Shown: piece after piece, positions 1 to 27,184 of the stretch
Position numbering within the stretch: the stretch's first letter is position 1
Layout: each line of letters opens with the position of its first letter
Origin: Dimargaris cristalligena
Lineage: Eukaryota
Direction of reading: 5' to 3'
DNA length: 37,059 nucleotides
NCBI GenBank assembly: GCA_003614675.1
Contig: ML002369.1
Span: 1 to 37,059 of the forward strand
The notes under the pieces: generated by a model
What the model was told of the DNA's origin: nothing
The model's input: the letters and a program-made list of their open reading frames with translations, nothing else
Database searches by the model: none
Made by a program: the position numbers and the translations under genes

Positions 1-186
1 AGCTCGCCCGGGCCATGGATACCTTCCGGGCCCGCCGGTTTAGCCACGGGGCCCTGGAGCTCGATAGTATGGAGGTGAAATTTCAATTCTCGGACCAGAA
101 GGTCCTGGAAAATGTCCAGACTAAAGAGGCCCTACCCATCCACCGTACCGTCGAGGAAGCAATGGTGTTGGCTAACCAGTTGGTGG
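1..186 (+). CDS. Internal RNB (RNase II catalytic domain) exon of a DIS3-like exoribonuclease, DIS3L1-type; partial at window edge and not continued in cis
   Basis: Open from position 3: LARAMDTFRARRFSHGALELDSMEVKFQFSDQKVLENVQTKEALPIHRTVEEAMVLANQLV, matching the RNB pattern R..R...GAL.L...EV.F...H..VEE.M.LAN. Ends at a consensus donor G|GTACGT (187-192, phase 1). Confidence 0.88.
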
Positions 187-272
187 GTACGTATTTAGTC
201 CAACACGCCCATAAAACTCGGTTCATTAAAAAAAAATAACACATTGGTCAGTGAAATGCCGGACTCGGTAGG

Positions 273-1929
273 TTAGGATCGGGAAATATCTACGACGCCG
301 AATAAATAGATATTCGTTGTGATTAGTACTAAACCTATAAACACTTGAACCATGCCGTCTCAATTTCAATTTCAATTTCAATACAAGCATATGAACTCAC
401 CATTTTCATCTTCGGATACTGACTCCGAATCAATATCGGACCCACTATCACTTGGTTCAGGGGTACTGTCGTCGAGTAACTTTATGGCCACGACGTCACC
501 ATGGACAGCCCGATTCTGAAGGGTTTGACTGGGAATCAGGACGGCCTGCTCGGATCCATCCGGCAAAATGATTCGCACCGTAGCATGATCGCGTCGATTT
601 TTTTTCACCACAAGGACTCCTTGGTATAAATCCCTGCGCTTCAGGCGAGTTTCTAATTCAGAGGTTGATAGGTAATTGGGGTAGAGCGTGGTGGACTTCT
701 TGGTTTTTAAATAACCGGACAGGTCACTCCCACAAAATTCGCCGTAGGAGGCGAATTTAACTGATTCGAAATGGTCCAACAAGTCGGAGCTATTGCCGAA
801 TTTTTCTTTAAGGTAGGATTCCAAATCGGTCACCGTGACACCCGTGTCATCCGATGCTATAAGATCCTGGTAGCGGGCCTGTTCGTCCTTTTCCGCTAAA
901 AGAATGATGGGTATGCTAGTGCGAAGGTGACGGCGGTACCACTGGGCGCAAGCCAATATAGCTCGCCAGTCGCGATCATACAGAGTTTCATGGGGCTGCC
1001 GGGCAACGTGGGTGCCTTGGAAATACCCATTGTAAAAAAAGACGGATTGGCGGGCCGGGGATTCAATGGCTTGACGTAAGGCCCGGGCCGTTTTGTTTCG
1101 CTCGTGATTGATTAGCTGTTGACGTATATAAAGGCGGGGCATTTACAGGCATGGAGTAGATAGGGAGTTTATACAAGTCTCGCCCAATTAGTTCAGTAAT
1201 ATAAGCTAGGGTGTCTGGCTGTTGGGACGTGGATTGGACGGGTCGGCATTTGTTCGTTTGCAGTTGGGGACTAAGCTAATTAATTAGGGGTCAGTAAAGT
1301 GGGATACCTACCGAATTGAACGAGGTCTGGTTGTATATCACATTAGTCAATTCCGACTGAATAAAAATCTCGGCGTAACGGGCCAGGGTCTGTTTGAATC
1401 AGTATGACATGTGGTTATAAGAGTGCTCCAGGTTAGAACTAGACATCGCAATGATGAAGCAGATTCGCATAGTTCGGAGCGTAAACCGGGTTGACCAAGG
1501 TGCGCCCCATTGGCACGGATGTTTATAATCGATATAGGGACCACAGTACCTTGGTGTCGGGTATAATGTAAGCGCTAGCATCCCCGGCTAACAATCCAGT
1601 ATGATGATGGGCCGGTACGCGTTCCTGGCAGGTCGGCCGGGTGGGACATAGCTCGGACAAGCACGGGATATCGGTTCGCAGGTAGTCTACGGTACAAAGT
1701 GGTTCAGAAATGGACCAGGTCCAGGCATGGGTTAGTGAACTCCTCCCAGTGAATAAGGCATGTCGAGCCTGGGCCCCTGGTTCCCGATAGTACCAATGCC
1801 CAGGCCAAGTGGGTAGGGTATAGGGTAGTTTCATTTCCAAACGGGTTCCTCTTGCTTACTTTCTCTGACTTGCTTCACCACATTATCCCGGGTCTTTCGA
1901 TAGCTTTTGTTTATAGTACGTTTCAACAT
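273..1929 (-). CDS. N-terminal half (CR3 motif, PIN domain, cold-shock domain 1) of a DIS3-like/DIS3L1 ribonuclease; truncated
   Basis: Exons 1929-1860, 1686-1550, 1389-1312, 1115-401 join in frame at GT-AG sites: MLKRTINKSYRKTRDNVVKQVRENYLRTDIPCLSELC...YIIPDTKTLARYAEIF...WYRRHL...QNRAVHGDVVAIKLL. Donor GTGAGT at 400-395, branch-like TACTAAT near 330-324 and acceptor AG at 291-290 give only DISRS-stop (289-273), about 338 aa in total. Confidence 0.88.
360..382. repeat. (TCAATT)~4 tandem hexamer within intron 4 of the DIS3-like gene
   Basis: tcaatttcaatttcaatttcaat read directly. Confidence 0.85.
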
Positions 1930-3279
1930 GGTGTCTTTGGGGCAGGCTGAATGGGCCGGTGCAACAATGTGGAGGGAATGGCTTTAGTATAGACTGGAGG
2001 ACAAATGGCTGGGGTCTAAAAAGTAAGAAAATAAGCCAAGGGGGACCTTCGAATGGGGGAATGTAGAGGTGGAAGATGGAGGTGGTTATGGTTCGAGACG
2101 CAGCAACAGGGGGACTGTCTCTATATATAAAGCAGCGCAGTATTGAAGACCAATCCTACAGCAATGCCGTGGTCCGATTATCCCGCGGCGTCCTTCAGGC
2201 CGAATTATTCGTACCATCCCACATTCCACTTTACAGTTGCTACAATCAAAGAAGCATTAACCGGTATCTTGGTATAATAATCAGTATAGCATTTAAAAGG
2301 AATAGACCGAGTTCTTGAAGTAGAGGCTATGTCCGTTCTCGACTTTGGGACAGGGTCGGTTGTTTAGACGTTTACCACGGCTAATTTAATCACCAACCAT
2401 CTAAATCCAAATTTCTAGCTGGATAGCAACCCCCTACTTAGGACATCCCTTATATGAGGCGATTGCTCTTTAATTCCTACCTCTATTACGCTCAAGATGA
2501 AAACATTTATTCATACGGCGCAGTGCCACATAGCACATAGCGCGACTACAGCCATCTTTGGGTGGGATATTGGGGCATTATTCATACAATTATAGTGCAA
2601 TTTCTCTGATGCGACCGTATTCGTCATGTTTTGGTGGCCACTATGGTTGCTAATATTACCAGATTGCTCAATGATTCATTAAGTGGGTAGGCGCGGCACT
2701 GACCACACATAAACACCGACTTGCTGTGGATGCAGCTTACTGGCAGTAGCCTGCCATATGGTAAGATTAAGGTAGCCACCCGCTTACAGTCGTATGTGCT
2801 CGGCCAGGCATTTCTTTAGGGGTACCAATTGCATTGCCTGTATTCTGGTTCGTGTATCGCGCATTAACTAGGGCGAAGCTTTTGAATAATAGATATGCAC
2901 CTTCTTCATAGAACTTAGCTTCCAATTCCTTGGATACATCTGTACTGTTTTTATTCTTTGACTCCGCCTGCCTCACTGCTGGTTTCTTCAGAAACTTTAA
3001 ACCGATGCATAGTTAAATTAGTTGACAATATTGTCTCCCTCGACAACCCTTATATAATCAGATGCCCCGATTATGAATCTGCATAACCCGCTTGATAACA
3101 ACTCTGTGGAACCCTGTGACAGTATTGGGGCGGTATTAATGGAGTTTGGGACTGCAAGGCTATCAACGGGATTGGTATCACGTGATCGTGTGTTTTCAAC
3201 CCCGACCCCAAGTCACCTGACCAAAGGTTTACCCTTATTTTTCTAGTGAAATTGGACAGGATGAGAAGTGAGAGAGAAT

Positions 3280-3341: not shown

Positions 3342-3786
3342 TATTGGGTCAGTACAGAGGAGGGTTTCGGTACAGTCGTTGACCGCAGGCCTCAAGGACA
3401 TTTCCAAGAAATTGGCAGCTAAACTGGCCGCAGAAAATGCCAACGTAAAATACCGCCCCCCTCCAATTATCGGGCCAGATCGCCCAAGGAGAGAGAGACC
3501 AGCACAACGTACCGCAAGAAAGGATTCCAAGTCAACGAAGGGGAGATTGATCGTACGGTAATAGTTTGGCTGAGACTGTACAGCGTAGATCCCGACCTCT
3601 TCTCCCTTTGCCCCCTCGGTCTGTTCTCCTATTGTTGCTTGTGGTTTTACCCGCTCTTGTTGGTTTCTTTCAAAGTAGTTTCATCATCCTAGGCCAGCCC
3701 CCTCCCTATACACACACATAGCGTCTTCTCTTCATTGTCTTCTTGACCCTTCCACATCCACACAAATACAGCCCAATACACATACC

Positions 3787-4956
3787 ATGGCCCAAACTAC
3801 TGCATCTGCCGTGCTCGGTGGCGGTTCCAAATCCTCCACCGCCTCGCTCGCTGCCGCCCTGGACATTGAGGGTAACATCCCGATCGAGTCGGTCCAAATC
3901 GAGGCCCTCGTGGTGATGAAGATCCTCAAGCACAGCCGTGAAGCCCAGCCCGCCACCGTATCGGGTCAGCTCCTCGGTCTGGATGTGGAAAAGACCCTCG
4001 AAATCACCCACTGCTACCCCGTCCCCACCGGGTCGGCGGAGGGGGCCGACGAGATCGCCCAGTACCAGGTCGATATGATGCAGTGCCTGCGGGAGGTCAA
4101 CGTCGACAGCAACGCCGTGGGCTGGTACCAGTCCGCGCACCTGGATTCGATCCTCGAGCCGTCCATCATCGAGATGCAGTACAATTACCAGAAGAACCTC
4201 AAGAAGAGCGTCCTCCTGGTCTACGACCTGTCGAGCACCACCCGCGGCAACGTGTCCCTGCGGGCGTTCCGGCTCACCCCGGAGTTCATGGAGCTGTACA
4301 AGAAGGGCGTGTTCACCACGCAGAGCTTCACCTTAGCGGGCGTTACCTTCGATAACATCATGACCGAACTCCCCGTGGTGATCCACAACTCGGCGGTCTT
4401 GAACATGTTGATGCACGAACTCAGCGAACCCGCTGCCACGGCCGACCCCGCTTCGATGCTCGATTCCCGCCGCCTCTTCAGCTCCCGCAACACCGGCGGT
4501 GGCCAGGTGGGTCTGGGTGCCGACGGCGAGTACGAAACCGAAGCCGGTTCGACTCTGGTGGACTCCGCCGTGGTCAACCCCGCTGCCCTGGACCTGTCCC
4601 TCAACGCCCCCCTGGAGAAGAACCTCGAGAGTCTGCTCGAAAGTGTCGACAAGTACAACTACAACCGCTACCAGTACCAGTACTGGCAACGCGGGGTCGC
4701 CCGGGAACAGAGCAAGATCCAGCAGTACATCCAGCGCCGCCGGCTCGAAAACGCCACCCGTATCGCCGCGGGTCTGGCCCCCCTCCCTGAGGAAACCGAA
4801 TCCCAGGTCGAGGCCATGTTCAACATGCCCAAGGAACCCTCGCGTCTGAACCACATTCTGGCCGCCGGAAAGGTCGACAACTACTGCAAGCAAATCAACC
4901 AGTTCAGTGGCCCCGCCCTTTCGAAAATCTTCACCATCCGGGAACTTCAGCAATAG
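3787..4956 (+). CDS. eIF3h: Eukaryotic translation initiation factor 3 subunit H (MPN domain)
   Basis: Intronless 389-aa ORF with strong GC3 bias; VQIEALVVMKILKH, GQLLGLD, LEITHCYP, YQVDMMQCLREVNVDSNAVGWYQS, LRAFRLTP and C-terminal EPSRL...YCKQI are typical of eIF3h. Confidence 0.95.
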   Translation: MAQTTASAVLGGGSKSSTASLAAALDIEGNIPIESVQIEALVVMKILKHSREAQPATVSGQLLGLDVEKTLEITHCYPVPTGSAEGADEIAQYQVDMMQCLREVNVDSNAVGWYQSAHLDSILEPSIIEMQYNYQKNLKKSVLLVYDLSSTTRGNVSLRAFRLTPEFMELYKKGVFTTQSFTLAGVTFDNIMTELPVVIHNSAVLNMLMHELSEPAATADPASMLDSRRLFSSRNTGGGQVGLGADGEYETEAGSTLVDSAVVNPAALDLSLNAPLEKNLESLLESVDKYNYNRYQYQYWQRGVAREQSKIQQYIQRRRLENATRIAAGLAPLPEETESQVEAMFNMPKEPSRLNHILAAGKVDNYCKQINQFSGPALSKIFTIRELQQ

Positions 4957-5882
4957 AGTAGGAGGGGATATGGCTATTACATATATCTAAGGCCCCTTGG
5001 TTGGCTGCTTGGCCCCCGAGTTCTTGGGTGTGTACGCCGTCGTGGGTGGCTTTTTAAGGTTCATTTACTACCACCACCGACTCGGTAGCCCATATGGGTG
5101 CCCCCGGCGGCGATGCATATGGTTTACGCCCTCTCCTGGGCCCTTCTTCTCTCGCATTATTACTGTCTTTCCTATCCACTATTTTTCATGGGGTTCGTTT
5201 ATCCAATGGGTTGTTTTCTTTTATTGGTTTCGGTTATCTACCATGACCCTGTTTCGTTTGTTTTCCCTATAAATACGTATATATTCGTAAAACTCTGGGG
5301 CACTATTTAGTAAAGTGGATGTGTCGCAACACCCGCTGTCCGTTTTAGTTGGCCTTCCAACCTTATATTTGGCGAAGCAACAGTGCATCCCTATTGTATT
5401 GGGCAAAATGTTTTTTTATAGACTAAACGAATCGGTCGCTTGATAATAACCAAAATGAAGGAAATGGAGGGTCGGTGGTGCGAATGAATGCTGATGATAA
5501 AGTGTGGACATGTATGACAAAAACAGTGTATAATGAAAAGTAGTCGAGTGGAGTGATAAATCGATGAAAGAAGTGCGAAGTGCCGGGAAACTAAACCCAG
5601 TAATTGTCCAAATCTGACGGAAAATAAATAGAATTTAAGTATATAAGAAAAAAGCAATGCGGACACAATAAGCCCATTAAAATTAACCACCGCTAAACGG
5701 GCAACTGCCCCATTACATTACTCGGCTGGTCGCTTATCCCACATGCTGAGATTAACGGAGAACCCACCATAGCCGATTGCATAGCGTAGTTGAAGCAGCA
5801 ACAAATAGTAAAAAAATGAATTATGTATAATGCGTTGGAGTGGGTTGTGTAATAGCCAATATTCGAGGTCGGCTAGACTCGA

Positions 5883-7010
5883 TTACGCCTGCATTTCGGG
5901 CTCCGTGAGGATCTTCTCTTGGGCTTTCCGCTTGCGCCCGGGGACCCAGTCGAGGTTGTACTCACGGATGCCGATGGGTTCCTTGTACACCATGTACTGC
6001 ACCACGCAGGCGATGATGATAAGGCCGAGCATACCACCTATCATGCCGTACACCTTTCCGTTCGTTTCGTACAGCAGCTTGTCGGCCTTGGCGGTGACCA
6101 CGAGGTACAGGATAAAGCGGAACCCCGTCTTGAAGAAACAGTCCAGACCAATAAACGTGGCGAGGGAACCGAAGAAGGCGGTACTCAAAATAACGATCCA
6201 CTTTTCGAGGACGAAGATGAGCACGATGGCCAGCACGATCATGCCCGCAATGAAGAAGCCCCGACCGATTGGGTTGGTGATAAGGGCCCCGTTTTTAAAG
6301 GATAGGATAACGGCGGCAATGGCCAAACCACCCAGCGAACCGACACCGGCCAACCCGAGCCACCAAATGGCAGCGAATAGGGCACCCCCGATAAGACCGA
6401 ACACGCCACTGGTGACCAAGTAACCGATGATATGACCCACGGAAGTACCCGGGGGGTGGATGCGGATGCAGAGAAGGAGCACCCCGAGGCCGAGGTAGAC
6501 GAAACCGGTCAGGAACATGACCAGGCGGAACAGTCGGTTGCCTAAGAAAGCAAATAGGATACCGAAGACTAGCATGATGACACCAATGACAATCTGAATA
6601 GTCCCGATTTTATCGGAAACTGGAGGACGGTGGTCGGAGGTGGGGCAGGTGGTTAAAAAAGGGGGGAGAGTTGTAGAGATTTAAAATTAGAATTCGAAAG
6701 TTATAGTTCGTATCCAATTGATACTAGGCCGCCCATTAGGGGAGACCAAGCTACAGTAGTTCATAGAATAATGAGATTATATACCTTCTTTCTGGGTGGA
6801 GTTATCACGTGTGACTTGGCGGCCCACGTTAGGGGCAGCGGACGTGGTCGGGACTGCTGGAGCCGGGTCATAGAAGTCCTTGATGTCATCATCCAAGTTT
6901 GGAAGAGCATGGGCCACGAGAACCGAAACGGCGAGGGCCAGGTAGGCGAATATAAGACTAAACCGTAGCAAACGATTCAGATAACTGGAGAAGCGGGGAA
7001 CCAACGACAT
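5883..7010 (-). CDS. DUF4203/TM7SF3-like multi-pass membrane protein with N-terminal signal sequence
   Basis: Exons 7010-6785 and 6619-5883 (donor GTATAT, acceptor CTCCAG) join in frame. About 7 Gly-rich hydrophobic helices; G.RLFR...FLTGF, ILSTAFFGS...GLDCF, G...Q pattern of DUF4203. Confidence 0.8.
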
Positions 7011-8405
7011 GGCTCTGTATAATCTTGAAAAATGGGGGGAAATGGATAAAAGCGGTACTAAAACGGCACGGATGAAAATAGAAACACCTGTAAATGTATT
7101 CAATGGGAAGGATATAGAATGAAGGGATGTGTCTAGGCGGGCTAGACTAAAATACGTGAATGTATAGATGAAAATGAGGGTTGAATGCACATATGAGACG
7201 TTGCGGACAGCCAGAAAGTGGAATTCGGGAAATGGGGCTGGGCGGTGTGCGGTTCTAGTTTTATATCCCTGCGACGACCGACCAGCAGACGGAGTGGAGA
7301 GGGCGGGAGGGGGGGGTCCCAGGACTCTTTCATTGTTACAGTTATACGCCTCACCGTTGTTAGTCCGATTGGCCGAATAGATAAACGGGCGGAAGACAGG
7401 GGAGGTGTGGTCGCCGTGGTTTCCGATCCCGAAGTGTCGCCTGTGTGGGGACATCTTTGGGCCAGAGGCAGGTAGTTCAAGCTCTGCTATTGATATTTTA
7501 GAGCTGAGATGCCGGAGGAGGAGGAGTTGGCGGTGGTTGAGCCAAGGAGGAGTTAGTGAGTGAGAGAAATACGAGGGAGGGGGAACAAAGACAGTCACGG
7601 TGATTGTTAGTCGGGTCCCGAACTCATCTAATCCAAGGGATACAATTAACCCTATGGCCCGAGCCCTTTTCTTTCACAACAGCCCTGTTTCACACACACA
7701 TACACACACTCTCTCTCCACGCCTATACTCATCCCCATATCCCATACCCTGCATCTCTTGCCTAGTCCCCACCTTGTGCGCCCAACTTCCTTTGTCTAGC
7801 TGGCAATAAACGATTGGCTTCTTCTCCAGCGTAGCCCGCCCTCATATTCATCGAGTGAGGGTTTATTCGGCTCTCGACCCCCGCCCCGATACCCCTGTAC
7901 AAGCCGGAGCTAACCAAGTCCCAGCCCCATTAATTGGTTTGGCCATGGGGCAGCTGGTCAGAGTAGCTGCGTAATTTACTTCAAAATACAGGCAAATCAA
8001 TATACATGGTCGTATAGCGGCTCTTCCTTGAGGTTTGCTGGCGGTCAAATTAAATATTATCAGGGACTGTGGCCGTGTGGAGCGCCACCGAATAGCGGTT
8101 TCAGGCACTACCACAAAAGTTGCTGTGGTCATTTCAGTACCGCTGCACATTTCCCAGTCCTCGGTAGCCCGGTGCATGGCCACCAGTGCCCTTTAGGGTT
8201 AATAAATAGAAATAGGATTATGTGCCACTGGAAACTGATTTCAAAAATTAGGTTTATATTTATAAGTGTAGACTACTAAATAGCCCCCCTGTAGATAATG
8301 TGAGTGATAGGGGGATATGGAACAAACTAGCGCTAGTCTCCGATCGTGAATAATTCGAATTTTCAGACTCAATTATGAAGACTACTGGACAAGACGGGCC
8401 CCTGT

Positions 8406-9734
8406 TTAGTGGTGACGCTTAGTCTCTTCAATCAGAGTAGCGTCGTCGTCAATTGAGGTGGCATCAAAAATAGCCTGGCCCTGACCCTGTCCCTGCTCCA
8501 GGTCAGCTTGCCGACGACCCGGGGTACCGTGACTAGGATTATCGTGGCCTGAGGGGTTGGACTCTGCAACGGGGGTATTGGGCTTAGGGGGTGACGAGGA
8601 GGCGGTACCGTACAAGTACGAGGCGTAAAGCACAGCGGCCGTACCAATAACAAACATGATGGTAATATGGAAATCGAAAATGAACACCGACATGACGCAG
8701 GATAGGATAATGGAAATACTAGTGGCGAACCCCTTGAGAATATTGTCAGCGAACTTAACGACCAGCGCCACGATGATACCGCCCAATGCCTGGCAGGCAA
8801 TGGCCCCCCAGGTCCACATGTTGTACCCGTACCAAAAGCCATGTTCACGCACACCGGCACCATCCTTGAGAATGACCCCCAGGAGCAGGGCGGGGAACAG
8901 CGAGAAGAACGAAAGCTGAATATTACGAATCCACAAGGACGTTTTGGAGCCCTTGAGAATTTTTTCGAAATAAACGCCCGCCAAGCCGGACATGATACAG
9001 GCCAGGGCCACGGTAATTAGGCCCAGGAATTTCTCCCAATTATCCCGCTTGGCCTTTTCCTTGGCCTCGTCGGGAGTATCGCCACCCTGGTCAGCCCCGG
9101 TGGAACTCATGGAGGGCAGTTGGACCAGAATCACACCCACGGTCAACACGAGCAGGGACACCCACTGCCACAGGTTTAGGGGTTTACGGAGGATAATAAC
9201 GAAGCACAGGGCGGTGGTGAGAATCTTCAATTGGTAGGTGACCTGGAAAGTGGCGGCATCGAGAAGGGAGACGGCGATGTACTGCAGGTTATTTTGGATG
9301 GTGTACAAGGCAGCGGGGATCATGAGTTTCCAGGCGTCGGCACCGAGTACTTCGCCGACGAGCCAGCGCACGGTAATGGGAGGTTCCCGCTGGGCCAGGG
9401 AACCACCAGCCGGATCCTCTTCGTCCCATTCGCCCCGGCTGCGACTGCGGTCGTCGTCACTGCGGGCCAGCTCGTATCCGCCGTCCCGACCGGAGGAGGA
9501 AGAGCCCAACGCCTTGCGCCGCTGGGTTTCCTCGTACAGGAACAGGCCGATGCTCATGATGAGCTTGGACAACTCGGCCAGCAGCACGGCGGTTGAAGTG
9601 TAGTACTTTTCGCCGGTTTGACCCGAGTGGAGCCGCGAGTAGCGCATGACCAGCACCAGGGCGCTGTTTTGGACGACGAGAGTCACCAGACTCACGTACT
9701 TCATGGGAATGCTGCGAAGATAATGGAGAACCAT
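8406..9734 (-). CDS. Nucleotide-sugar (UDP-galactose/UDP-GlcNAc-type) transporter, SLC35A/Gms1 family
   Basis: SLVTLVVQNSALVLVMRYSR, STAVLLAELSK, IPAALYTIQNNLQY, DAATFQVTYQLKILTTA, SGLAGVYFEKILK, KFADNILKGFATS; first ATG at 9734; intronless. Confidence 0.95.
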   Translation of the reverse strand: MVLHYLRSIPMKYVSLVTLVVQNSALVLVMRYSRLHSGQTGEKYYTSTAVLLAELSKLIMSIGLFLYEETQRRKALGSSSSGRDGGYELARSDDDRSRSRGEWDEEDPAGGSLAQREPPITVRWLVGEVLGADAWKLMIPAALYTIQNNLQYIAVSLLDAATFQVTYQLKILTTALCFVIILRKPLNLWQWVSLLVLTVGVILVQLPSMSSTGADQGGDTPDEAKEKAKRDNWEKFLGLITVALACIMSGLAGVYFEKILKGSKTSLWIRNIQLSFFSLFPALLLGVILKDGAGVREHGFWYGYNMWTWGAIACQALGGIIVALVVKFADNILKGFATSISIILSCVMSVFIFDFHITIMFVIGTAAVLYASYLYGTASSSPPKPNTPVAESNPSGHDNPSHGTPGRRQADLEQGQGQGQAIFDATSIDDDATLIEETKRHH

Positions 9735-10744
9735 GGTGGATAGAGTAAAGGGTATTGAATAAGAGGAAAAAGAAAGGGCGTAGATAGTATTATAAATAGA
9801 GTAGATAGGCCAGGGGAAGGGGAGGGGAGGCGGCCGCACGAGGTCTTTCGACTAGTGGAATGAGGTTCGTAGAGGTGCCCACTAGAACGAAACGCAGGAT
9901 AGGAAAAGGTCTCTCAAACACAGATAAAGCTATTCATACACCTCGGAGTTAGTGTGTATGTAAGAGCATATGTAGACCCAATAATATAATAAAAATGTCG
10001 AGCATGCAGCTACTAAACAGGCGTAACTCAGCTAGTGCAAGTAAAGGAACGAAGGAAAGAAAGAGAGGGAGAGAGGAATTAAGAAAGCCGAGGCATTAAC
10101 TATTCCTTAGGGTTAGGAACACAGTAACGACTCACGCAAGTATTAGTAGGAATCATCTGAATCGGCGCTTCATCATAATCCGGTTTTTCTTGAGTGTAAT
10201 CTGAGGGCGGCAATCCTTTCTTCCATAGGCCTCCCATTGTTCTTGCCTATATGCTATTTACAAGGGGGTGTGGGGAAGTCGAAGCGGGGGGTGGGCTTCA
10301 CAATCCACACGGCATTTTCCCAGACAATCCCCATCTATGCGCCGCCAATCCTTTATCGCCTGTCCAACCAATCCCCAGCACCCTTATGCTACTACGGGCG
10401 GGTAATAGAAAATATATGCGCATAGAGACTGGGAAAACGAAGTGCCAACCAACCTGCTCGCAGTAATAGCAACGCGGCCTCTGAAACCTGTTTTAGTTTA
10501 TAGAAGAACCAACCCAATCGATCGTCAACACCGGGGTTTAATTATGCGCTCGTGTATCTCCGACTGTTACTGCCTTCTCTCTCTCTCTATTATTATGCAT
10601 CAACCTACCCGAAACTTCCGATTTATTGAGCTTGCCAGAGCCAGTAAGTTTATAGAACAGTGGTCAACGCCGAAACCTCCATCCCCAGCAATATATGATA
10701 CCCCAGGTGCCTCTCCAAAACAAATACTCAGCTGCCGGTTCGGA

Positions 10745-13556
10745 CTACCAACCCAGCTGGGCATCACTGGACTTAGAAGTCCGGAATTTCCATCTCGAAT
10801 TGGCCGGCAGTGCCGTGCGGGCGAAATCGACCCGGAAGTTCAGCAGGTCCATAAACGGCTGCTTGCGGTACAAATTGTGCGTGGGCAGCCATACAATCAC
10901 TTCCTTTCCTTCGTGCTCCACGCATACCACCGGCAAGGCCGCCCGGGTCGTCACGGGGATCCGTTTCAGTTCGTTCAGTACCTGAAACGCGGGTTTGATG
11001 GCCTCTTGCTCCCGGCCATTCTTGATCAGATTGCGGCGCCGGGTATCCCAATAGGGCGGGCGGTAAGCAAAGAATTGGAGATGCTGGCGCAGTTCGGCCT
11101 GGTCCGTTTGCGTGAATTCGCGAACGTAGAACCGGGGGAGTTTGGTTAAAATGGTAGCGGGATCGGCCATCGACACCCCGGCGGGGTTTAGGCTAATGCG
11201 GAAATAGAACCGTTTGGTCCATAGTAATTCCTGACCCGGGGGCTCCTCCCACTGCACCTGGATGGGCCGTCGCGTTTCGCCCCATTCCGACCGGGAAAAC
11301 GGCTGCCGGGAAAATATCCAATACATGTACGAATCTGGGTCCCCAATGGGAGACGACGCCTGGTCTTTGCCCCGGCGAGTCCGTCGCATAGGGTCCGTAT
11401 TCCCTAGGCTTTGGCTTTTTCGGAGTTCTTTCCGTAGGACATCGCGGGCGGGCTCAAACCGGGACACCAATGTTCGGCCCATGACCCAGTTGGTATTAAT
11501 AGTTTCCTTATCGGTGTTGGGGGGTGTCTTTGATTGAGGATAGCCGCGGAGGCGGTCCTTCGGCCGACCGGGTGTCCACATCTCAGGTTGATCAGTCTGG
11601 CTAACTTGCTTAATCATTTCATATAGGCCCTCCAGTTGTTTCCGCCGAGGTGAGTGGGGAGTCGGACAAACCCAGTTGCATAGAGCGCTGTAGGTACGGG
11701 TGGCCAAGCTCGGGTTATGCCACCATTTCTCAACCTCGGGGTGGTCTGATGGATGGTACTGGTTTTTGTAGGGGATCCGGACCACCGCAACACCAATATC
11801 TGCCCGGAAAGTAACGTAATCCTGTAGAATCTGGCTGACTAAGCAAGGCGATGGAGTAAACCATAAGTATATATAGGTAAAGTGAACAACGGGGGATATT
11901 AGAAATCCGAAATAGACATTTAACGACCGAAATAACTTACTTGTCTGCCGGGGCAGTAAAGTCAAGCGCAAACCATGCATAATAGCTGTGAAAAGTTATG
12001 AACCACCCCCTTCCCCTCCAATCACCCGAACCATCCCTTGCCGAGATAAAAAGACGGGTAAATTAACTTACCATGGGACTCTACGTTCTCCCGGTGCTCC
12101 TGCATGCGCAGGTTTAAAGAACCGAGGGAAAGCTCCGATAGCGGAGACATCTCCCCGTCCGAATCCTTGCGGGATTTTCCAGTCTCTTCTTGAATTATCT
12201 GCCGGATGGCATTACGCTGGAATATGGTCGATTGATTACTTGGGTCTTCGACCCAGTGGATATTATGCACCTTACAAGTATCCAAGATGCGTTGCTATGG
12301 TTGGTGTGATTAAGTAATAATTCCGCCCAGAAGAACCGAAAAATGATACCCACGCCCCGCATAATAATAAAGTAAGCACGGTAGTATAAACAACAATGTA
12401 AGTTCCCAGGATCGGTTTGGTGAATAACAACTAATTCTAGTGTATTAAATCAGACCCCAACGCGGTTCAAGCTAAAGGGGATTGCCCATAAAAAATTTTG
12501 CAAGGCCCGCTTGAACATTACAATAATCAAGCCAAATAAAATGTACCTTAGAGAAGCCCAGCAGGGGTCGGGCCAGACGAAAATCCGACGAATTCATGTA
12601 AAAGGCTTCAGGGAAGAGGCGGAGAGCCGAGATACCGGCGATCCCGTCTATACCGCTCTGTTTGATAAACCGCGTGAAGGTCGTTTCTAGCTGGTCGTTC
12701 AAATGGTGCCCGGTAAACAACACCGGCAAACCATGGTTAGAGCAGGCCTGGCCCATCAGCCGGTACCGTTCATGGCGGCCCACTTCTTCCATTCGGTTCG
12801 GGGCGGGTAGATCAAGGGGTCCTTGCGAAGGGGGTGTCGACATGGCTTGCCCTTCGGGGCACCCCGGTCGATCGTCCTTGGCCTTGTCCTCGCCCAACCT
12901 GGCGGTACCTCCTGTAGCATCGGGTTTATTCCAGGGAATGGTCAATGTGTAGTGGTCCGCGCCTAGGTCGGTGGCCATTTGTTTCACTTTTTCGGCCTCC
13001 TCGGAACTCTCCGGCCGGAATTGGTGGTCGACCGTTAGGGCCACGATACGGGCTTTTGGTAAGGATTGGCGGAGAAGAGCCAAAAGGGCCATGCTGTCAG
13101 CCCCACCCGAAAGAGCCACGCCTAAAGGAGGTGGGGGAGGAGAAAATATTGGTCAAAAACAGCATCCTGGTTATCGTATTAGACCAGGAGCGGGAGGGGA
13201 ATTACTGACTACGTAACTTTTGCATTGCCCCAAATCACCTACTAATACCATACCATTCCGCTAGTAACAACAAGCCATTCCTATTCCTCCAATTTCGGGC
13301 TGCTTTTATCTAATATACGAGTTTCTCCTCCATCGAACAGGTAAGTAGAGTAATATGCACCTCGAAACTGCCGAAGCCCTTCCTACCCCAATTTTCATGG
13401 GGAAAGTGGTTGTAATAATTAAAACAGTGCCCCCTCCATTGGCGAAGATCCTGTAAGGGAATGTGGTTAATGCAAGGACCTACCGAGATGTTTCAGCTTA
13501 AGGAGCCCAAGTCCCTTTAGGGTTTTGGCGAACTCTCTGGCGGGAATCGGCCTCAT
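10745..13556 (-). CDS. tilS: tRNA(Ile)-lysidine synthase (TilS)-like PP-loop ATPase, probably mitochondrial
   Basis: Exons 13556-13484, 13121-12547, 12294-12072, 11838-10745 join in frame at GT-AG sites. Motifs GVALSGGADSMAL, VDHQFRPES, RHERY, TGHHLNDQLET, SGIDGIAGI, RPLL, WVEDPSN, RNAIR. Confidence 0.88.
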
Positions 13557-14187: not shown

Positions 14188-15825
14188 TTATTCAATACCA
14201 CAGTCAAACTGACGCAATACACCCGCCAGTCGCTGCAACGCCGGTTCGAACTCCTCGGGTTTAGTAAAGGAAAAGGCGGCGCGCAGGTAGGGCGCGTTCA
14301 CCCGTTCGGTACGATCAATCTGACCGGCGAAGAAATAGCCGGGGATGAGCATGACGCGGGCCTCCACCATGGCATCAAGGACCTGGGGCATTATGGGTTT
14401 AGGGGAGGCGGCGGCCTCTGCTTCAGATTGTCCTTTGGAGCTGGGCGCGGGATCGGGATACGGCGCCAGTAAGGCCTGGGGGAAGCGCGGGCGCAGCCAC
14501 ACGAACATACCGGCTTCGGGCACGACATAGTCCGCCAGGCCGTCTAGGTACCGGTGAACCAGGTCCACGAACAGATTACGACGGCGGAAGTAATCGAACT
14601 GCAGTTGCTTGAGATAGTCGGACCAGCCCTTGTGGCTCCACACATTGGTGAGCAATTCGGTCAATAAAGCTTGGGAAAGGCCCGACGGTTGTTGCACGGT
14701 GGTCTCATTGTGGAATTCAATGTAGGGGAGGAATTGCTTGCTGGCGGTAATCCAGCCGGTTCGGGAGCCGGGGGCCAGGATCTTGGAGAACGAGTCCATA
14801 CGGATCACTCGGCCATCGACGTCTAGGGAAAGGAACGACGGGAGCAGTCCGCTGAGGCCGGGCTGGGCGTCCGGGTGGTCATTATCGCGGGTTTCGGGGG
14901 ATTGGTAGTCGGCGTACTGCAAATAATAATATGGGTCGTCTTCGAAAATGATCAAATTATGTTTCTGGGCCTGGGCGTAAATGGCTCGACGGCGCTCAAG
15001 GGGCATGGTCGCGCCCGTAGGATTCTGGCCCGTGGGCACCAAATATATCATTTTCGGGACCGGGCGGTCAGGGCCATAGGTGCTGGTCCAGTTCGTGAGC
15101 ACCTGGTCCAAGGCGTCGGGCAGCATTCCCTGTTCGTCCATGGAAACGGGTCCCAAACGAACATCGTGGCTCTGGGCCGTGTCCACGGCCGCGGGGTACG
15201 TCCACTCGTCCACCAGCATGGTATCGCCGGGGGACCCGATCAGCCCAATCGCCTTGGACAAAGCGTCCGTATTGCCCACCGTACCAATGACATCCCAGTC
15301 GGCATAGGGGGGCGCGTGGATTTCCTGGGTGTGTTGGCGCACAAAGGCCTGGTAGGCCGGGATACCACGTGTGGTACCATACTGCAAGGAGTGCGTCAGG
15401 GCGATGGTCTTATTGATGGCGTCGCTGTCGGCGGACGGCAGAAAGGGAATACTCATGGAGGTCAAAGGGCGACTCGACGGAGAGGAAGGACCATCCTCCT
15501 CCTGAGCGTTGCCCTCGGCCGGGGTTCCCCCGAACACGGGCACGCTGGCACTAAGCGACCGGAAGGCGAAAGTGGAAGGGTGTGGTAGCCCGGCCGAGAG
15601 ATTCAGCATGCCGGGCAGGAAGAAGAGATTGTACAATGACTTGATGGGGGTCTGGGTCCGGCGCTTAGCATCGCCCAGGAGGTTGGAGAAATCCAGGGCC
15701 TTCCGAGGTTCGTCGGGGGTGACTGTCGTCTTGGGCCGCTTAACTTCAACGGTCTCGGCCATGGCCACGGGACTCGTAGCAGGGTGAGTGGCTGCGACAG
15801 TTTCGTGGGCGTTAGCCAAAGTCAT
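14188..15825 (-). CDS. PLP-dependent class I/II aminotransferase, Aro8/2-aminoadipate transaminase-like
   Basis: LSAGLPHP, LQYG, YLVPTGQNPTGATM, IFEDDPYYYLQ, PLP-lysine motif MDSFSKILAPGSRTGW, PEAGMFVW; first ATG at 15825. Confidence 0.93.
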   Translation of the reverse strand: MTLANAHETVAATHPATSPVAMAETVEVKRPKTTVTPDEPRKALDFSNLLGDAKRRTQTPIKSLYNLFFLPGMLNLSAGLPHPSTFAFRSLSASVPVFGGTPAEGNAQEEDGPSSPSSRPLTSMSIPFLPSADSDAINKTIALTHSLQYGTTRGIPAYQAFVRQHTQEIHAPPYADWDVIGTVGNTDALSKAIGLIGSPGDTMLVDEWTYPAAVDTAQSHDVRLGPVSMDEQGMLPDALDQVLTNWTSTYGPDRPVPKMIYLVPTGQNPTGATMPLERRRAIYAQAQKHNLIIFEDDPYYYLQYADYQSPETRDNDHPDAQPGLSGLLPSFLSLDVDGRVIRMDSFSKILAPGSRTGWITASKQFLPYIEFHNETTVQQPSGLSQALLTELLTNVWSHKGWSDYLKQLQFDYFRRRNLFVDLVHRYLDGLADYVVPEAGMFVWLRPRFPQALLAPYPDPAPSSKGQSEAEAAASPKPIMPQVLDAMVEARVMLIPGYFFAGQIDRTERVNAPYLRAAFSFTKPEEFEPALQRLAGVLRQFDCGIE

Positions 15826-16400
15826 GCTAAATTGCGGGGGGTGCAGTAAGTAATAAGTCAAGAAAGAGTGTGGGGTAGGGTAGAATGGAGAAAGTATACC
15901 TGGACGAATATCCCTAGATAACCACCAAAAGCTCGGTTATTAAAAGAGGAATAGAGAAGTAAGGGGATGCAGAAATATGGATTATATAGAGCTATAGGTG
16001 GTAAAGGAGTCCTTTATATCTAAAGGACTGGGGACTGATTTCAAGAAAGTAGCGGGAGAGAACAGGGAGGGGATGTGATAGTTTCGTCATTTATATAGAA
16101 AAGCCGGGACAGGTCACCACAGACTAGCACAGCCATCTTATACGAAGAACAGTCACACAGATAAACAAAGCAATATGGGCTCAAGAATTCCCTTGCGAGT
16201 AGAGGACCTTTTCAGGCCTATTAAGCCGCTGTTCGTTCCGTAAGGCCTTTGGGGGGTTTCCATGCCGTTTGGTCCCGAATCCTATTGGTTCAAATGCTTT
16301 AAGGCCTATTATTAACCTAATGCCACCATTAGATAACGTACCTCCATTGCTGGCTATCATTTAAAATCACTAGGAATAAGTGACGCACCACCAATAGTAA

Positions 16401-18031: not shown

Positions 18032-21000
18032 CTAGGTGGTCCGGAAACCTAAGGTAGACTGACCCGAGGTGGCTGGGCGGTTGGAGTTGGTGGGAGTGTC
18101 GCCGTTATCGTTGGGCGCAGACCCCGATGCTTTGACCGATTCGAGGAATCGCCGCGCCGAAATCCGGTGCCGGGCTCCACTGCTCGGCTTTCCGTCGGAA
18201 CCGCTGCTCCCGCCGTTGGTTTGATTTACCTTGGCCTGAGCCCTGCTATCACCACCACCATTGGCCGGAGGATAGTTCTCGTTTCCATTAATAGGGGCCA
18301 ATGCTGAGGAGAAAGAAGAAGAAGCAGTAGAGTTGGAGGAAACGGTGGATGTGGGGTTGGCCGGAGGACCCACTTTAGTACCGACGGGGTCAAAGGCCCG
18401 GCTTCGTCGCCGACTCGAACCACTGCGAATGGGTCCACCTAAACGAGCCCGGGATTGGGGTCCACTGGAGTTCCCTGAGACTAGCGAATGGGACTTGGAT
18501 GATGCCGTCGGTTTGGTGTAGCTCGGCTGCGGACGACTGGTCTTCAGAATCGAGCGAGACGGAATAGCATTGAGTGGTGGGGGTTCGTAGCGGGGGGACT
18601 GCTCCGAACCGGTAAACGAGCCATTGTCGGGTTGCGAACTACAGGACATGAACGAGCTAGAGGAAACGTCCGAGTTGGCCGGGGACGCTGGGGACTGCTG
18701 GCCCTTGTCCAAGTGTTGAATATCCCAGGGTCGGCGTTGCCTATTGGGTGACGATTGGATTACTTCGGTGCCATCAACGTCCATAGGACCAGGTACCGGG
18801 ACCGAAACTGAAGGAGGCGCAACTGCTACAGTTGGTGGTGGTGCCGGCATCGGTGCTTGTGAAATAGGAAGTGGTGGTTGTGGTGGTGGCGGTAGAGAGG
18901 ATGCTGGTGAAGGCGAGGCACCGATACCGGCACGCTTATTGGCCTTGAGATTCTCCAACGAAGGCTGAGAACTGAGCATGCCTCGGGGTCGCTTATTCCC
19001 CAGCGGATGAGCCGTGGAGTCCGCACTAGAATACGAATTCCGCGAACTTGGCGGCCGGGCGGGCCGTAATGGAGCCGTGCCCGCGGATAGAGAGCCCGAC
19101 CGACGGCTATTGGTCATACAAGGCTCGTCCCGGCCATTCGTCGTCAAGGAGCTCCGCGCCCGGCGGGGCGAGACGGTGGTCGTTCCCGAGCGCACCCGGC
19201 CGGCAGGTGGCGGACGAGCGGCACCCGAACCGGCTAGGGCCCGGTGACTAGGGGGACGGCGGGCATCCCCGGCTAGGCCGCTATGATTATTATTGTTATT
19301 ACCCAACAGGGGGGTCGACCGGGAGGCGGTACGAATATTCGGGGGATGGGGCACCAGAATATCGGCCAGTAACCGGGACGACAACTTGTCCGCGGAGAGG
19401 GGAGGCACCTGCCACTTAGCCGGTCCCGCCGCGGTGGCCAGTTTGATGGAGGCCGCCACACGTCCCGTCACGTCGTGCAGGGACTGGGTGGCCTGGTAGT
19501 GCAGTTGCCGGAGCGTTTGCGTGGCTAACTCCGCGCACTCCTCGGGGTTTTCCATGACGCCCTGGAGCCCCTGGTCCAGACCATGCAGCAACCGGGCATT
19601 GCCAGCCACCGTGTCATGCAGGACTTCGAGACACTCAAAAAGGAGGGTCTGGGAGAGTTCGAAGGATCGACTCAGGCGGGTGTTGGTACAGTTGAGCTCA
19701 AACGCCTTCTTTTCCAGATCCAGCCGGTATTTCTGATCCGACGTCAGTGCAGTCACGGCAGCGTTATTTTTCGTATAGTCTGCCCGTTTGGTATCGTGGC
19801 GGTAGCGAGACAGGAGCACGGAGGTGTGGTCCAGTTGGCGACTGAGCATCCCACTGTGGCCCTGCAGTTGGGAAATAAGGTCCTCCACGCTAGCCCGGGG
19901 CAGCCGCTGGGAGTCGGTGGCGTTCGGGCTACCCGGAGGGGTCTCCCCATTGCTTCCGGTCCCCCAATTGGATCGCCAGGCCTCTAGCATGGCCAAGTGG
20001 TGCTTGAAGACGTCCGCCACCACCGATACCGAGGCGTACTCCCATTCGCTGGATCGAACGGAATCAAACGCAATGGACATTTTATTGCGAATATCCTCAA
20101 CCAATTGAAGGGTCGCTGTGGGGCGGGCGGGGGCCGCGGCCGGAGTGAACAGTGGGGCAGCAGCAATGGCCTTGGCCCGACTTCCACCACCCCCGGCTAG
20201 TTGACTGCGCAGGTTGGCGTTCTCGGCCTGGAGGCGCTTGATGATCTCGGACTGCTCCTTGATTTGCTTGACGTATTGGGACACATGGGCCTTGACGTTC
20301 ACCGTGTTCTGCTCGACCTTGGTCTTGATGTTCTTGGCCCGGTTCGCGTATTTGAGGGTATTATAGGTTTCCTCAAAGTACGTACTGGCCGGACTACAGC
20401 AGACGATCATGACCGTTTTACAATTACCGCCCAGCGAAAACTTGAGCAACCGGGTGAGCTTACTGTCGCGGTACGGAATATGGCGTTTCTTTTTATCATC
20501 ACACAGGGCATTAATACAGTTGGCCAGCGCCAGTAGGGAGCGGTTGATGTTGGCCCCCTCCAGGAGCCGGTCGCCCCGGTTTTGGGTAACGGAGGCCCGC
20601 TCGCTACCGGCCAGATCGATGAGACTGAGCGTGGCGGAGGTCACGTCGGACGACAGTCCGCCGACCCGACTTTTACGACGAATGTGGACTTGCAGTACCG
20701 CATGGGAGCGGGACGAGGTAGCATTCGCCTCGGTGGGCGACTGGGTGCGGTTCTTGTTTCCCAGCAGCACCAGCTCCATGACATCCTCTACTTTAGTAGG
20801 AATGTGCTCGCTGAGTCCGGCCACAATCACGCCCTTCTTGGCATCCTCCCGGAGGGCCAACGGGGGCGAGGGCATGCCTTCACCGACTAATAAATCACGG
20901 ATGGTTTCGTTGTAAACTTCCAAGTAGGACATGGCCGCCTCGACAATCTGTTCGTGCTCAGACGCATTGATCTTTTCGAAGAGTTCCTTCATGGTCAAAA

Positions 21001-21562
21001 AAATGATACCCGGATCCGACGGGATACCGCTGATGGTATGGGTTTTACCGCACCCGGTAGCGCCGTAGGCAAAAACGGTGGCATTGAACCCGTTCAGTAC
21101 CGCGTCAATGAGCGACTGGGTGGTGCCCACGTACACTTCCTGTTGAGTGGCGTCTTCGTTGAAGACTCGATCGAACGCGAAACGAACGTCCTTGTGCCGC
21201 TTACCGGTCTGGGCCGGCGGGGCACTGCGGGCGAAACGGGCATTGGCTTGGTCCTCCGGTGGGTCGAACACCAGGATGCGTTCGTCGATCACATGGACCA
21301 CTTTGCGCATGGCCTTTTGATTCCCGCCGGTGGTGGTGGCGGCGGCGGGTTGGCTGCCGAAGGTAAAGCGACCCGTAGCCGGAGGGGCCATGAGGGCCAG
21401 CTCCTTGGCATTAAAAGGGCGCACGCGGACGGTGACTAGAATGGCCGCCTCATTGTTGGGGGGTGGGCCACTACCGGCGGCGGCCACTTCGGAACCAGCC
21501 GACCCCGTTAGCGGAACGAGACTCATCCCGGGGTCCAGGGTACTGGGCTCTTCAGCAAGCAT
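18032..21562 (-). CDS. Kinesin-8 family motor (Kip3/Klp5/6-like)
   Basis: VRVRP, FAFDRVF, P-loop AYGATGCGKTHT, NATSSRSHAVLQ, LIDLAGSERAS, RLLEGANINRSLLALANCINAL, HIPYRDSKLTRLLKFSLGGNCKTVMI, NTLKYANRAKNIK; coiled coil then long S/P-rich tail. Start codon uncertain (21562 is the first ATG). Confidence 0.95.
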   Translation of the reverse strand: MLAEEPSTLDPGMSLVPLTGSAGSEVAAAGSGPPPNNEAAILVTVRVRPFNAKELALMAPPATGRFTFGSQPAAATTTGGNQKAMRKVVHVIDERILVFDPPEDQANARFARSAPPAQTGKRHKDVRFAFDRVFNEDATQQEVYVGTTQSLIDAVLNGFNATVFAYGATGCGKTHTISGIPSDPGIIFLTMKELFEKINASEHEQIVEAAMSYLEVYNETIRDLLVGEGMPSPPLALREDAKKGVIVAGLSEHIPTKVEDVMELVLLGNKNRTQSPTEANATSSRSHAVLQVHIRRKSRVGGLSSDVTSATLSLIDLAGSERASVTQNRGDRLLEGANINRSLLALANCINALCDDKKKRHIPYRDSKLTRLLKFSLGGNCKTVMIVCCSPASTYFEETYNTLKYANRAKNIKTKVEQNTVNVKAHVSQYVKQIKEQSEIIKRLQAENANLRSQLAGGGGSRAKAIAAAPLFTPAAAPARPTATLQLVEDIRNKMSIAFDSVRSSEWEYASVSVVADVFKHHLAMLEAWRSNWGTGSNGETPPGSPNATDSQRLPRASVEDLISQLQGHSGMLSRQLDHTSVLLSRYRHDTKRADYTKNNAAVTALTSDQKYRLDLEKKAFELNCTNTRLSRSFELSQTLLFECLEVLHDTVAGNARLLHGLDQGLQGVMENPEECAELATQTLRQLHYQATQSLHDVTGRVAASIKLATAAGPAKWQVPPLSADKLSSRLLADILVPHPPNIRTASRSTPLLGNNNNNHSGLAGDARRPPSHRALAGSGAARPPPAGRVRSGTTTVSPRRARSSLTTNGRDEPCMTNSRRSGSLSAGTAPLRPARPPSSRNSYSSADSTAHPLGNKRPRGMLSSQPSLENLKANKRAGIGASPSPASSLPPPPQPPLPISQAPMPAPPPTVAVAPPSVSVPVPGPMDVDGTEVIQSSPNRQRRPWDIQHLDKGQQSPASPANSDVSSSSFMSCSSQPDNGSFTGSEQSPRYEPPPLNAIPSRSILKTSRPQPSYTKPTASSKSHSLVSGNSSGPQSRARLGGPIRSGSSRRRSRAFDPVGTKVGPPANPTSTVSSNSTASSSFSSALAPINGNENYPPANGGGDSRAQAKVNQTNGGSSGSDGKPSSGARHRISARRFLESVKASGSAPNDNGDTPTNSNRPATSGQSTLGFRTT

Positions 21563-22319
21563 CGGGCTGAAGGGACCCTGCGGGCTTTGGTTAGAACAGA
21601 GTAACGTAAGGACAGGCAAATAGAATAAAGGTCTACGGAAGTGGAAATGGCGAGACTGGGCTGACGGGACTGGTGGGGAAGTTCAAGGGTGGTGCGCAGG
21701 AGTAAGCCAAGTGGCAAGGTAAACGAGGGGGCGGAGAAGACCTGTCGTCGTCGTCGGAGTTCTGGGTATTATGTGGTATTGAATAAAGGGGAGGAGGGAG
21801 GGGACATCAATAGAAATCCGAAAAGTGGTCCAAAAGAGAAAGCAAGGACAGGTTGAATTAGCCGATAACCGAAAGCGAATCAGCCAGTCGACTTGACGAG
21901 TTCAATGGCATTAACCACAGCTGGGCATGTTGTCCCACTAAGTTAGAGGGTTGTTGCGGGGCGGAGTGTGGAACTATAGTGGCGGCTCCCATTCACGGAG
22001 GAAAGCGAAAAAAACAATAGAGTGTCCAGCGCCGTGCGGCATCCCCTTGTCCACGCGTTGCGACTCCTCTCTCCCCTGGCTGTGTTGATCTCCCCTGGTT
22101 ATCGGCTCTACACGGCCGCCCGATGACTGTAAAACCAAAACAAAAACACCCGCTCTCTATGTACACGTGATCACTTCTCCCCTTGCCAAGGAGCCACCCT
22201 AAACCTTGGTAACAATAAATTGGAGCTATAGTAGCCTACGTCATCGCTACTTCATCACCTAGTCACGCGGTCAAATTTAAGGTAGGTTGGTTGACCAGGC
22301 CCCTTTTAGAGAATTTGGT

Positions 22320-24561: not shown

Positions 24562-27184
24562 GACAGTTAAAACGAATCAACTCCAGCGGGTCACGCCTGA
24601 CCGACCGAATCCATCGGTTGACTACGCCACTATTCCAACACCCATCAATGCTGACATCGCACTGCATTATCCACCGTTTGACCCCCCGTTTATTGACCAC
24701 TTTGGTTACGCCATTTCTATCTTCTCCCTATCTGATTTGACATTTCTCGTGTGTGGACCCAATAGATACATGTTCTTTTGCCCATTCTCCCCATACTGAA
24801 TTATGCCGACTTGGGTCATTATTAAACGGTCGACCAAAGTGCCTGCTTTAGTATTGAGATTTACCTCATGTTCCAATATGAGCCAACCCGGCTTATATAG
24901 TCTAGGACCCCAGTGCAGCACTCTATATTAGCATTGATATTAGTAGTATTTTTCGATTCATCTAATGGTATTTACCGATTACCTTGTATTTTAGACGGAA
25001 CGTCTTGCATCGGTACTGGTACGGTAAGAGTTCAAGGTAGTGTGGACTTCAGCGACGATGGACACTCTGGCAAATGAAGATTTAGGATAGAAATAATAGC
25101 AAGTTGGTGCACTTTGTGTCTTATGCATTAATGTTCTTAGTGTTGGAATTGCAAATCGAAAAGGAAACGCCAGGCCTTCCTAATGCAACTTAAAAGAATA
25201 TTAGAAGTGAGAGTATGAGCAATAAGTGGCAAAGTTAGGCGCCCGCGATCGGCTTTATTAAATTAGATGATATATATACACAATATAAATTGATATCTGG
25301 AGAACGGGGCGATTGGCCAAATATATAGGACAGGCGGGACGAGAAAAATGAATTCCAAACAGAACCATGGACTTGTAGACAGTATAGCCGACACCTAGTC
25401 CATTACCTACATTGGTCGGAACATAGTGTGACACCCCTACTTGGTATTGTTTATAGGGCATAGGTTAGGTGCAGAAGTTTAGAGGCGTGGATGAAATTTA
25501 AATAGATGACATGTAGGTGTGTTATAATAATCCAGATGGGCCCGGCACAAAAAATGGACTTAAGTGCAAGTTGGATGAAATTTGTCTGTATAGAGTTACT
25601 TGAATAACTTATACGGGTCTTACTTTTATATACAGATAAAGGCGAATTTGAAATACCCGAAATGCACCCAGAGATGTCCTATAAGGTCACTACTCTTTAT
25701 ATGTATTATAGAAGAAGCTCAGTTAGATATAGTTAAATGTTGCATCTGCGAAGTTAAGAAATGCCCAGACAGGCTCAGTATACATATCTATCTATTTATC
25801 TATATAGATAGCTAGATTATGCTAAATTCAGGCCGGACCTTCTAGCTTAAAAGCGTGGGCTTGGTCAGAAGAAACAGGACATGATTAGCGGTGGACTATA
25901 ACTGATTTAATCCGCGAAATAAAATTTACGTGTGGAGATTGGTAGGCCAACTAGTACTAGGAACTGCCCAGAGTGCCCTGGGGCGCCAGATGGCCCGAAC
26001 GCACTAGAGCGCGAGCCCCTGCGGGTCTCTTCTTATTGCGAGTTTAAAAGACATAGTAGGGGAAACGGGCCAGCTGAGAAGAAAGGGAGGCCTCATCCAT
26101 TCGGGAATGTTCTTGCGAAACCATGGGATGGTATTCGTCCATTTTCGCTCTCCGTGACTACCACCAGCATTTTCCTTTGGGCTGAGGACAACAGTTAAAC
26201 GTTGCGGCAATGCGGGCGGCCCAACGATGTACAGTGTGCGACGGATAATACCACACGTACGACCCGTTCGAAAGGGGCCCAAAATAAAACAATAAAAATA
26301 GGTACGGCCACCTACCTAGTCTAATATCTAGCCCGACGGGGAGGAGTCCGTCAGAGCCATACGGGCACGTGTAGGGCAGGCTCTCGATTATCTACAGCTT
26401 AAAGGTGTGCTACCCAACCTGTGGTCGCACTCGTACCGCCTGTGCAGCGCGACAGGTGCAACAGTTCGATTTTTTCTTCTCTTCGTCTACTCGCCCCCTC
26501 CTAGTCGTTCCTGCTTTTACTGCTTTTTTTTTGTACTTGTGCGGACAACCCCCGCCGTCCGCCGTTAGGCAGGCCCTACCAGCAGTGGAGCACAGCCCCA
26601 GTGGTCCACCGTATGACTCCGCCCAGCTTTCCCTCCCCCTCCACCGGATATTCTTTAGCCCCGCCCTCTTTCCCTGTGTGCGCCCATCGTCACTCCCTCA
26701 GGGCTGGGCGATATTGGATGTTTTGGGCACACGTATACCGCTTGTGCTCCGTTAGGGTGATACTCCAGCCAGCCTAAGAGTAACCTATCTTAGGCTGTGC
26801 CCACTCATCTTAACCCGTCCGACTATGTCCCCTCTCGCCCTGTACTCACCCCTGCTCATCCTTTGTGCTGCCTGCGCGCCTTGGTAGATGTTACTGCGTT
26901 TTACCTATGCATCACACACACCCGCTCGATACGAGTGCCCCGCTGTCTTTATATAAACCCCGAACGTGCGCTCCTAATTGTGAAGGCAGACAGCCTGAGG
27001 TAGAGCGCTTAATGAGTATCTCTGTATGATCTCCCCCCTCCCCTTTATTTCATAGTTCCCCTTTCACACAATTATATATCCTTTCGTTTACGACATTGCA
27101 TACCCCAACCCCCAAGGTTTGTCATAAACTTATAGATTAACACTCCTCTTTATATCGCACATTTTATTACATCGCCGATTAACT

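Follow-up and report, generated by a model that had tools for sequence, protein, structure and literature searches.

How can one gene come to lie on both strands of the same short stretch of DNA? The window (the whole stretch that was analysed, 37,059 nt) begins with two pieces of a DIS3L-type ribonuclease gene: exons for the N-terminal part run on the minus strand, an exon for the middle of the catalytic RNB domain runs on the plus strand, and the splice donors of the two pieces face each other. The original prediction had read the middle part of the gene as inverted, and had offered three explanations: a true or switchable inversion, a split gene joined by trans-splicing between opposite strands, or an inversion chimera from amplification or misassembly. 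All the features that it described are present in the window's sequence, but the window cannot be taken to follow the true genome at 210/211. The data do not support a two-strand split of the gene in the genome itself. The left end of the window is very probably a chimeric inverted tail on an assembled contig, the gene itself being colinear in the genome. Coordinates are collected in Table 1.

Table 1. Features of the window, and placement of its left end on two contigs of other assemblies (X1, X3).
Feature	Position	Strand	Basis or remark
RNB exon: mid-RNB, 62 residues read from base 3; 3′ end of the predicted large exon 5; in the window, oriented opposite to the remainder of the gene	1-186	plus	Pfam, homologs, X1/X3 contigs
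First part of the true intron that follows the RNB exon; its donor is GTACGT	187-217	plus	boundary scan; X1/X3 contigs
Probable chimeric junction, 7 nt (ATAAAAC) common to both pieces (microhomology)	211-217		overlap of 1-217 and 211-2400
Intron 4, first 190 nt; donor GTGAGT at 400-395	211-400	minus	boundary scan, X5 contig
Exon 4: PIN C-terminal part and CSD1	1115-401	minus	Pfam, homolog alignment, PDB matches, boundary scan
Exon 3: PIN N-terminal part	1389-1312	minus	homolog alignment, boundary scan
Exon 2: CR3 cysteine motif and PIN start (…IIPDTK)	1686-1550	minus	homolog alignment, boundary scan
Exon 1 with start codon (ATG at 1929)	1929-1860	minus	GT/AG boundary scan, open frame
eIF3h	3679-4953	plus	Pfam
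Nucleotide-sugar transporter	8409-9851	minus	Pfam
Class I/II aminotransferase	14191-15936	minus	Pfam
Kinesin, 1216 residues, one open frame	18035-21682	minus	Pfam
SPX and EXS domains, consecutive frames	27128-30277	plus	Pfam
MCM-family gene (MCM_N, MCM_OB), cut by the right window edge	36266-37057		Pfam
X1 record 1 (4898 nt, depth 49)	window 211-2400, reverse complement, at record 900-3089; window 1-217, forward, at record 3976-4192		gap 886 nt
X3 record 2 (28883 nt, depth 209)	window 1-217 at record 5205-5421; window 211-2400 at record 6308-8490		mirror layout; gap 886 nt

On the minus strand, a scan around the expected sites left exactly one combination of GT/AG boundaries that keeps the frame open. 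The four exons defined in this way total 1000 nt and end in phase 1, and introns 1-3 measure 173, 160 and 196 nt. Their product aligns with fungal DIS3-like exonucleases over the CR3 cysteine motif (YLRTDIPC...), the PIN domain and CSD1; in tblastn, exons 2-4 match the homologs P0001 and P0002 from residues 26-90 onward. A CR3 motif followed by a PIN domain, as in DIS3 and DIS3L, was recovered both by tblastn and by PDB matches to the N-terminal halves of DIS3 and DIS3L1. The Pfam scan gave no match to PIN on exon 4, and on the same exon Rrp44_CSD1 passed its cut-off (E = 6.3e-5, 23.2 bits vs 22). Boundary scan and homolog alignments agree on what had been predicted here, namely four clean exons encoding CR3-PIN-CSD1 up to the donor GTGAGT (400).

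On the plus strand, the translation of 3-188 passes the Pfam RNB cut-off (E = 1.7e-9, 37.9 bits vs 29.3) at profile positions 155-211 of 326, and the piece is 47% identical to residues 614-675 of P0001 and 53% identical to P0004. Homology with P0001 and P0002 ends at the last residue before GTACGT (187), and the exon end is at 186, in phase 1; the Pfam match and this stop of homology bear out the predicted mid-RNB exon and its donor. The BLAST match of the RNB piece to P0006 extends five residues beyond that point. Reading through the donor (…VGTYLVQHAHKTRFIKKK, then a stop) was considered as true coding and ruled out, since the homologs differ after VG.

The surroundings of the two donors were also described correctly. 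The computed exon ends, at 401 and 186, place both donors in phase 1, and early stops behind both of them are seen in the reading frames of the window. The roughly 200 bp between the donors are without the missing parts of the gene: with the homologs, tblastn gave no further match to CSD2 or RNB, and no minus-strand frame within 1-400 carries one.

For both pieces, the best-ranking named relatives are 'DIS3-like exonuclease 1' (from Mucor and Sporodiniella for the N-terminal piece, from Coemansia for the RNB piece). The closest relatives in a homologous-protein search reached 34% (N-terminal) and 53% (RNB), and the search with each piece found no near-identical full-length protein from the same organism, nor any ORF that contains the 886 nt described below. 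Against the PDB, the RNB piece matched human DIS3L1 at the top (7.5e-7), with DIS3L2 and RNase R much lower, while for the N-terminal piece yeast DIS3 (9.5e-13) and human DIS3L1 (9.7e-12) were nearly level. Pfam thus finds both CSD1 and the RNB catalytic domain, the latter in the window only over the profile positions given above. The shared best relatives, together with the colinearity of the X1 and X3 contigs described below, uphold the claim that the two pieces are complementary parts of a single DIS3L-type gene and do not duplicate each other. Judged from its sequence, the underlying gene is an ordinary DIS3L-type exosome nuclease gene, predicted to have its 3′ half outside the window.

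The shortness of the RNB piece, 62 residues and too few for a firm placement in a tree, leaves room for another origin, in which the exon would come from a different RNase II-family paralog converging on the DIS3L gene; the PDB matches do include DIS3L2 and RNase R, although with weaker E-values. However, the best matches of the piece are DIS3-like exonuclease 1, as for the N-terminal piece, and in X1 and X3 the RNB exon follows intron 4 downstream at a distance of 886 nt, with strand, order and phase all in agreement. A paralog is therefore extremely improbable.

The arrangement of the locus was examined in contigs from four public runs of the same organism (X1, X3, X4 and X5), aligned to positions 1-2400 of the window; five runs match. 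X1 shows 0 differences from the window and possibly represents its source sample, while X3 comes from another study and another strain, so that only X3 is fully independent. It differs from the window by 6 substitutions and 2 small deletions. In X1 as in X3, window positions 1-217 and 211-2400 lie on one contig, on opposite strands relative to the window, and are separated by 886 nt that are the same in both contigs and missing from the window. Read along the coding strand, each contig gives exons 1-4, the start of intron 4, the 886 nt, the RNB exon and further sequence, all on a single strand and with the domains ordered as in the family. In these other assemblies of the organism, the gene has a normal, single-strand layout.

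All four runs leave the path of the window at the join. The X1 and X3 contigs match the window to 217 and continue with other sequence; X5 departs at 211 into 139 nt of other sequence, and X4 record 3 departs there too. X4 and X5, whose cover lacks 1-160, are uninformative on that side. A record that spans 210/211 in the window's arrangement was found in 0 of the 4 runs, as judged from contigs, in which rare forms can be missed. A search of the 37-kb window found neither of the two flanking loose ends, which places the true neighbours outside it. When 40 nt of exon 4 were searched against metagenome contigs, there were 0 matches.

With the gene colinear in X1 and X3 and the window's join in none of the four runs, it is the third of the proposed explanations, an inversion chimera from amplification or misassembly, that holds. 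The predicted inversion of the gene's middle part stands for the window as given, where this part is on the plus strand, and falls for the genome, where it is on the minus strand like the rest. The other two explanations, a true or switchable inversion and opposite-strand trans-splicing, have lost their premise.

The loose end of X5 gives a view into the 886 nt. In reverse complement it continues the T-rich end of intron 4, reaches an AG four bases in, and then stays open in the phase of exon 4. With that acceptor, intron 4 measures 194 nt, vs 160-196 nt in introns 1-3. The count 1 + 882 + 2 gives 885 nt, or 295 codons, and meets the reading frame of the RNB exon exactly; a phase match would arise by chance one time in three. 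Between the two aligned pieces the homologs have 290 residues (P0001, 323 to 614) and 299 residues (P0002, 317 to 617), which 295 fits. Size, phase and the 30 loose-end letters of this one run suggest that the 886 nt form a single exon, one that encodes the missing end of CSD1 together with CSD2 and the N-terminal half of RNB. Size and phase, taken with the length of the intron, are consistent with one large exon of about 1068 nt; window positions 1-186 would be its final 186 nt. The equal phase of the two donors is then explained, because both are donors of one colinear gene and the exon between them is divisible by three (1068 nt).

Two phase-1 donors facing each other are also what would be seen if the gene were truly split over two strands, with its full mRNA made by opposite-strand trans-splicing in the style of Drosophila mod(mdg4). 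But equal phase is expected simply from one colinear gene, and the opposite-strand arrangement that such splicing presupposes in the genome is contradicted by the X1 and X3 contigs. Exons of one mRNA on opposite strands were found in neither of these two assemblies, where the gene is colinear, and we regard trans-splicing as next to impossible.

A comparison of the window with X3 points to the same colinear gene. The coding differences lie at 104, 450, 1324 and 1670, that is, in both pieces, and 4 of 4 are synonymous third positions; this synonymous-only pattern is as expected for one working gene. One non-synonymous difference, at 872, comes from an X5 contig of low depth, where it sits 38 nt from the end; it may be an error. 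Intron 4 carries a (CAATTT)n microsatellite at about 361-382 whose length differs between strains, the X3 contig being 6 nt (one unit) shorter at 360. It also carries a run of nine A (220-229) that is one base shorter in X3; the difference is harmless, being intronic in the colinear gene.

We then considered the join itself. The points that it links, in inverted orientation, lie about 1.1 kb from each other, with the 886 nt between them skipped, and the inverted piece, of about 210 nt, sits at the extreme edge of the window. The marks of a chimera are present: inverted orientation, points less than 10 kb apart with a deletion, short complementarity, and a join that is not reproduced in the contigs of four runs. 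For chimeras formed in multiple displacement amplification (MDA), PMC1855051 gives 406 of 475 as inverted with an intervening deletion; the points were less than 10 kb apart in 337 of the 406, and the joins were mostly primed at 2-21 nt of complementarity.

These elements can be put together as follows. In the genome, exons 1-4 (1929-401), an intron of about 194 nt and an exon of about 1068 nt would all lie on the minus strand of the window, and the gene would then continue to the left. From the intron after the large exon, the assembly of the window would have jumped, via the 7-nt microhomology, to the opposite strand about 1.1 kb off in intron 4, a jump that would skip the 886 nt and flip the orientation. 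The chimera may have arisen in whole-genome amplification or in library preparation and then been taken up by the assembler. Base 1 of the window is probably the end of the contig and the window probably the whole contig, as its odd length and the MCM gene cut at the other end suggest.

Further small opposite-strand joins were seen in the same 2.4 kb in X4, in its records 3 and 5 (depths 7 and 3). The pieces joined are 1013-1042 (minus) with 1152-1176 (plus), and 211-1042 (minus) with 1504-1533 (plus), at depths of 3-7. These extra joins suggest that the libraries of that study hold inverted chimeras.

The same junction could have another source. Suppose that the segment made up of 1-217 and the 886 nt, about 1.1 kb in all, were truly inverted in a minority or polymorphic allele of the source sample, the event having taken place at the 7-nt inverted microhomology. 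Exactly the junction 217/218 would result; the assembler of the window would have happened onto the inverted allele, and the gene would be disrupted in those nuclei. Contigs leave room for rare inverted forms: Logan contigs omit rare variants, and the absence of the inverted form from the source sample is unprovable from them. However, the X1 and X3 contigs are unbroken through both would-be breakpoints, so any inverted form is rare there, and among the runs neither the window's junction nor a reciprocal breakpoint was seen. The homology is only 7 nt, and inverted repeats of at least 30 nt are absent near 1-2400, the whole window holding one 31-nt, 77% pair, at 6214 and 24246. The Pfam scan of the window found no recombinase among 10 large reading frames. 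These last two observations bear equally on an invertible DNA switch, for which both inverted repeats and recombinase were looked for. Finally, the position of the inverted 210 nt or so at the window edge resembles a read-length chimeric overhang. A real inversion in the source sample is very unlikely on this evidence. Somatic or heterokaryotic variation, in which a 1.1-kb microhomology-mediated inversion breaks the DIS3L-type gene in a minority of nuclei or cells, is to be judged highly unlikely. A chimeric contig end remains the reading that we adopt.

The other genes found in the window by the Pfam scan are ordinary eukaryotic housekeeping genes (Table 1), and a PhzF-like protein is also encoded. 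The SPX and EXS frames probably form a single SYG1/PHO1-like gene, interrupted between 28018 and 29264 by an intron or a change of frame. Two long reading frames on the minus strand, 10748-11995 and 6780-7673, had no Pfam match.

The result is first of all a matter of quality control: with the left contig end chimeric, any gene model that relied on it would leave an RNA-decay nuclease of an essential type truncated or wrongly joined. Neither trans-splicing nor a DNA switch is supported at this locus. As a worked example, it also illustrates how in-phase splice donors that face each other at the edge of a contig can give the look of a split gene.

Three known systems can be set beside this locus. 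The first is that of the DIS3L and DIS3 (Rrp44) exosome ribonucleases, with which it shares the CR3 motif, PIN, CSD1 and RNB in family order; unlike a complete DIS3L or DIS3, its CSD2, most of its RNB and its S1 would fall outside the window. DIS3L is told from DIS3 by a PIN domain without the full set of catalytic acidic residues and by orthology to DIS3L1. For the N-terminal piece, yeast DIS3 ranks slightly ahead of human DIS3L1, which does not settle DIS3L against DIS3. The second is mod(mdg4) of Drosophila, where exons from opposite strands are joined by trans-splicing. The likeness is one of appearance, and in the window only, where exons for one protein are found on both strands; the arrangement is absent in two other assemblies, and there is nothing for trans-splicing to repair. 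The third is the inverted chimera of MDA. The library type is not on record here, and a ligation or assembler artefact would look identical in contigs. In the other respects the join of the window is like the MDA chimeras that Lasken and Stockwell (2007, PMC1855051) describe: nearby points, inversion, skipped DNA, a complementarity of 7 nt, and a join that is absent elsewhere.
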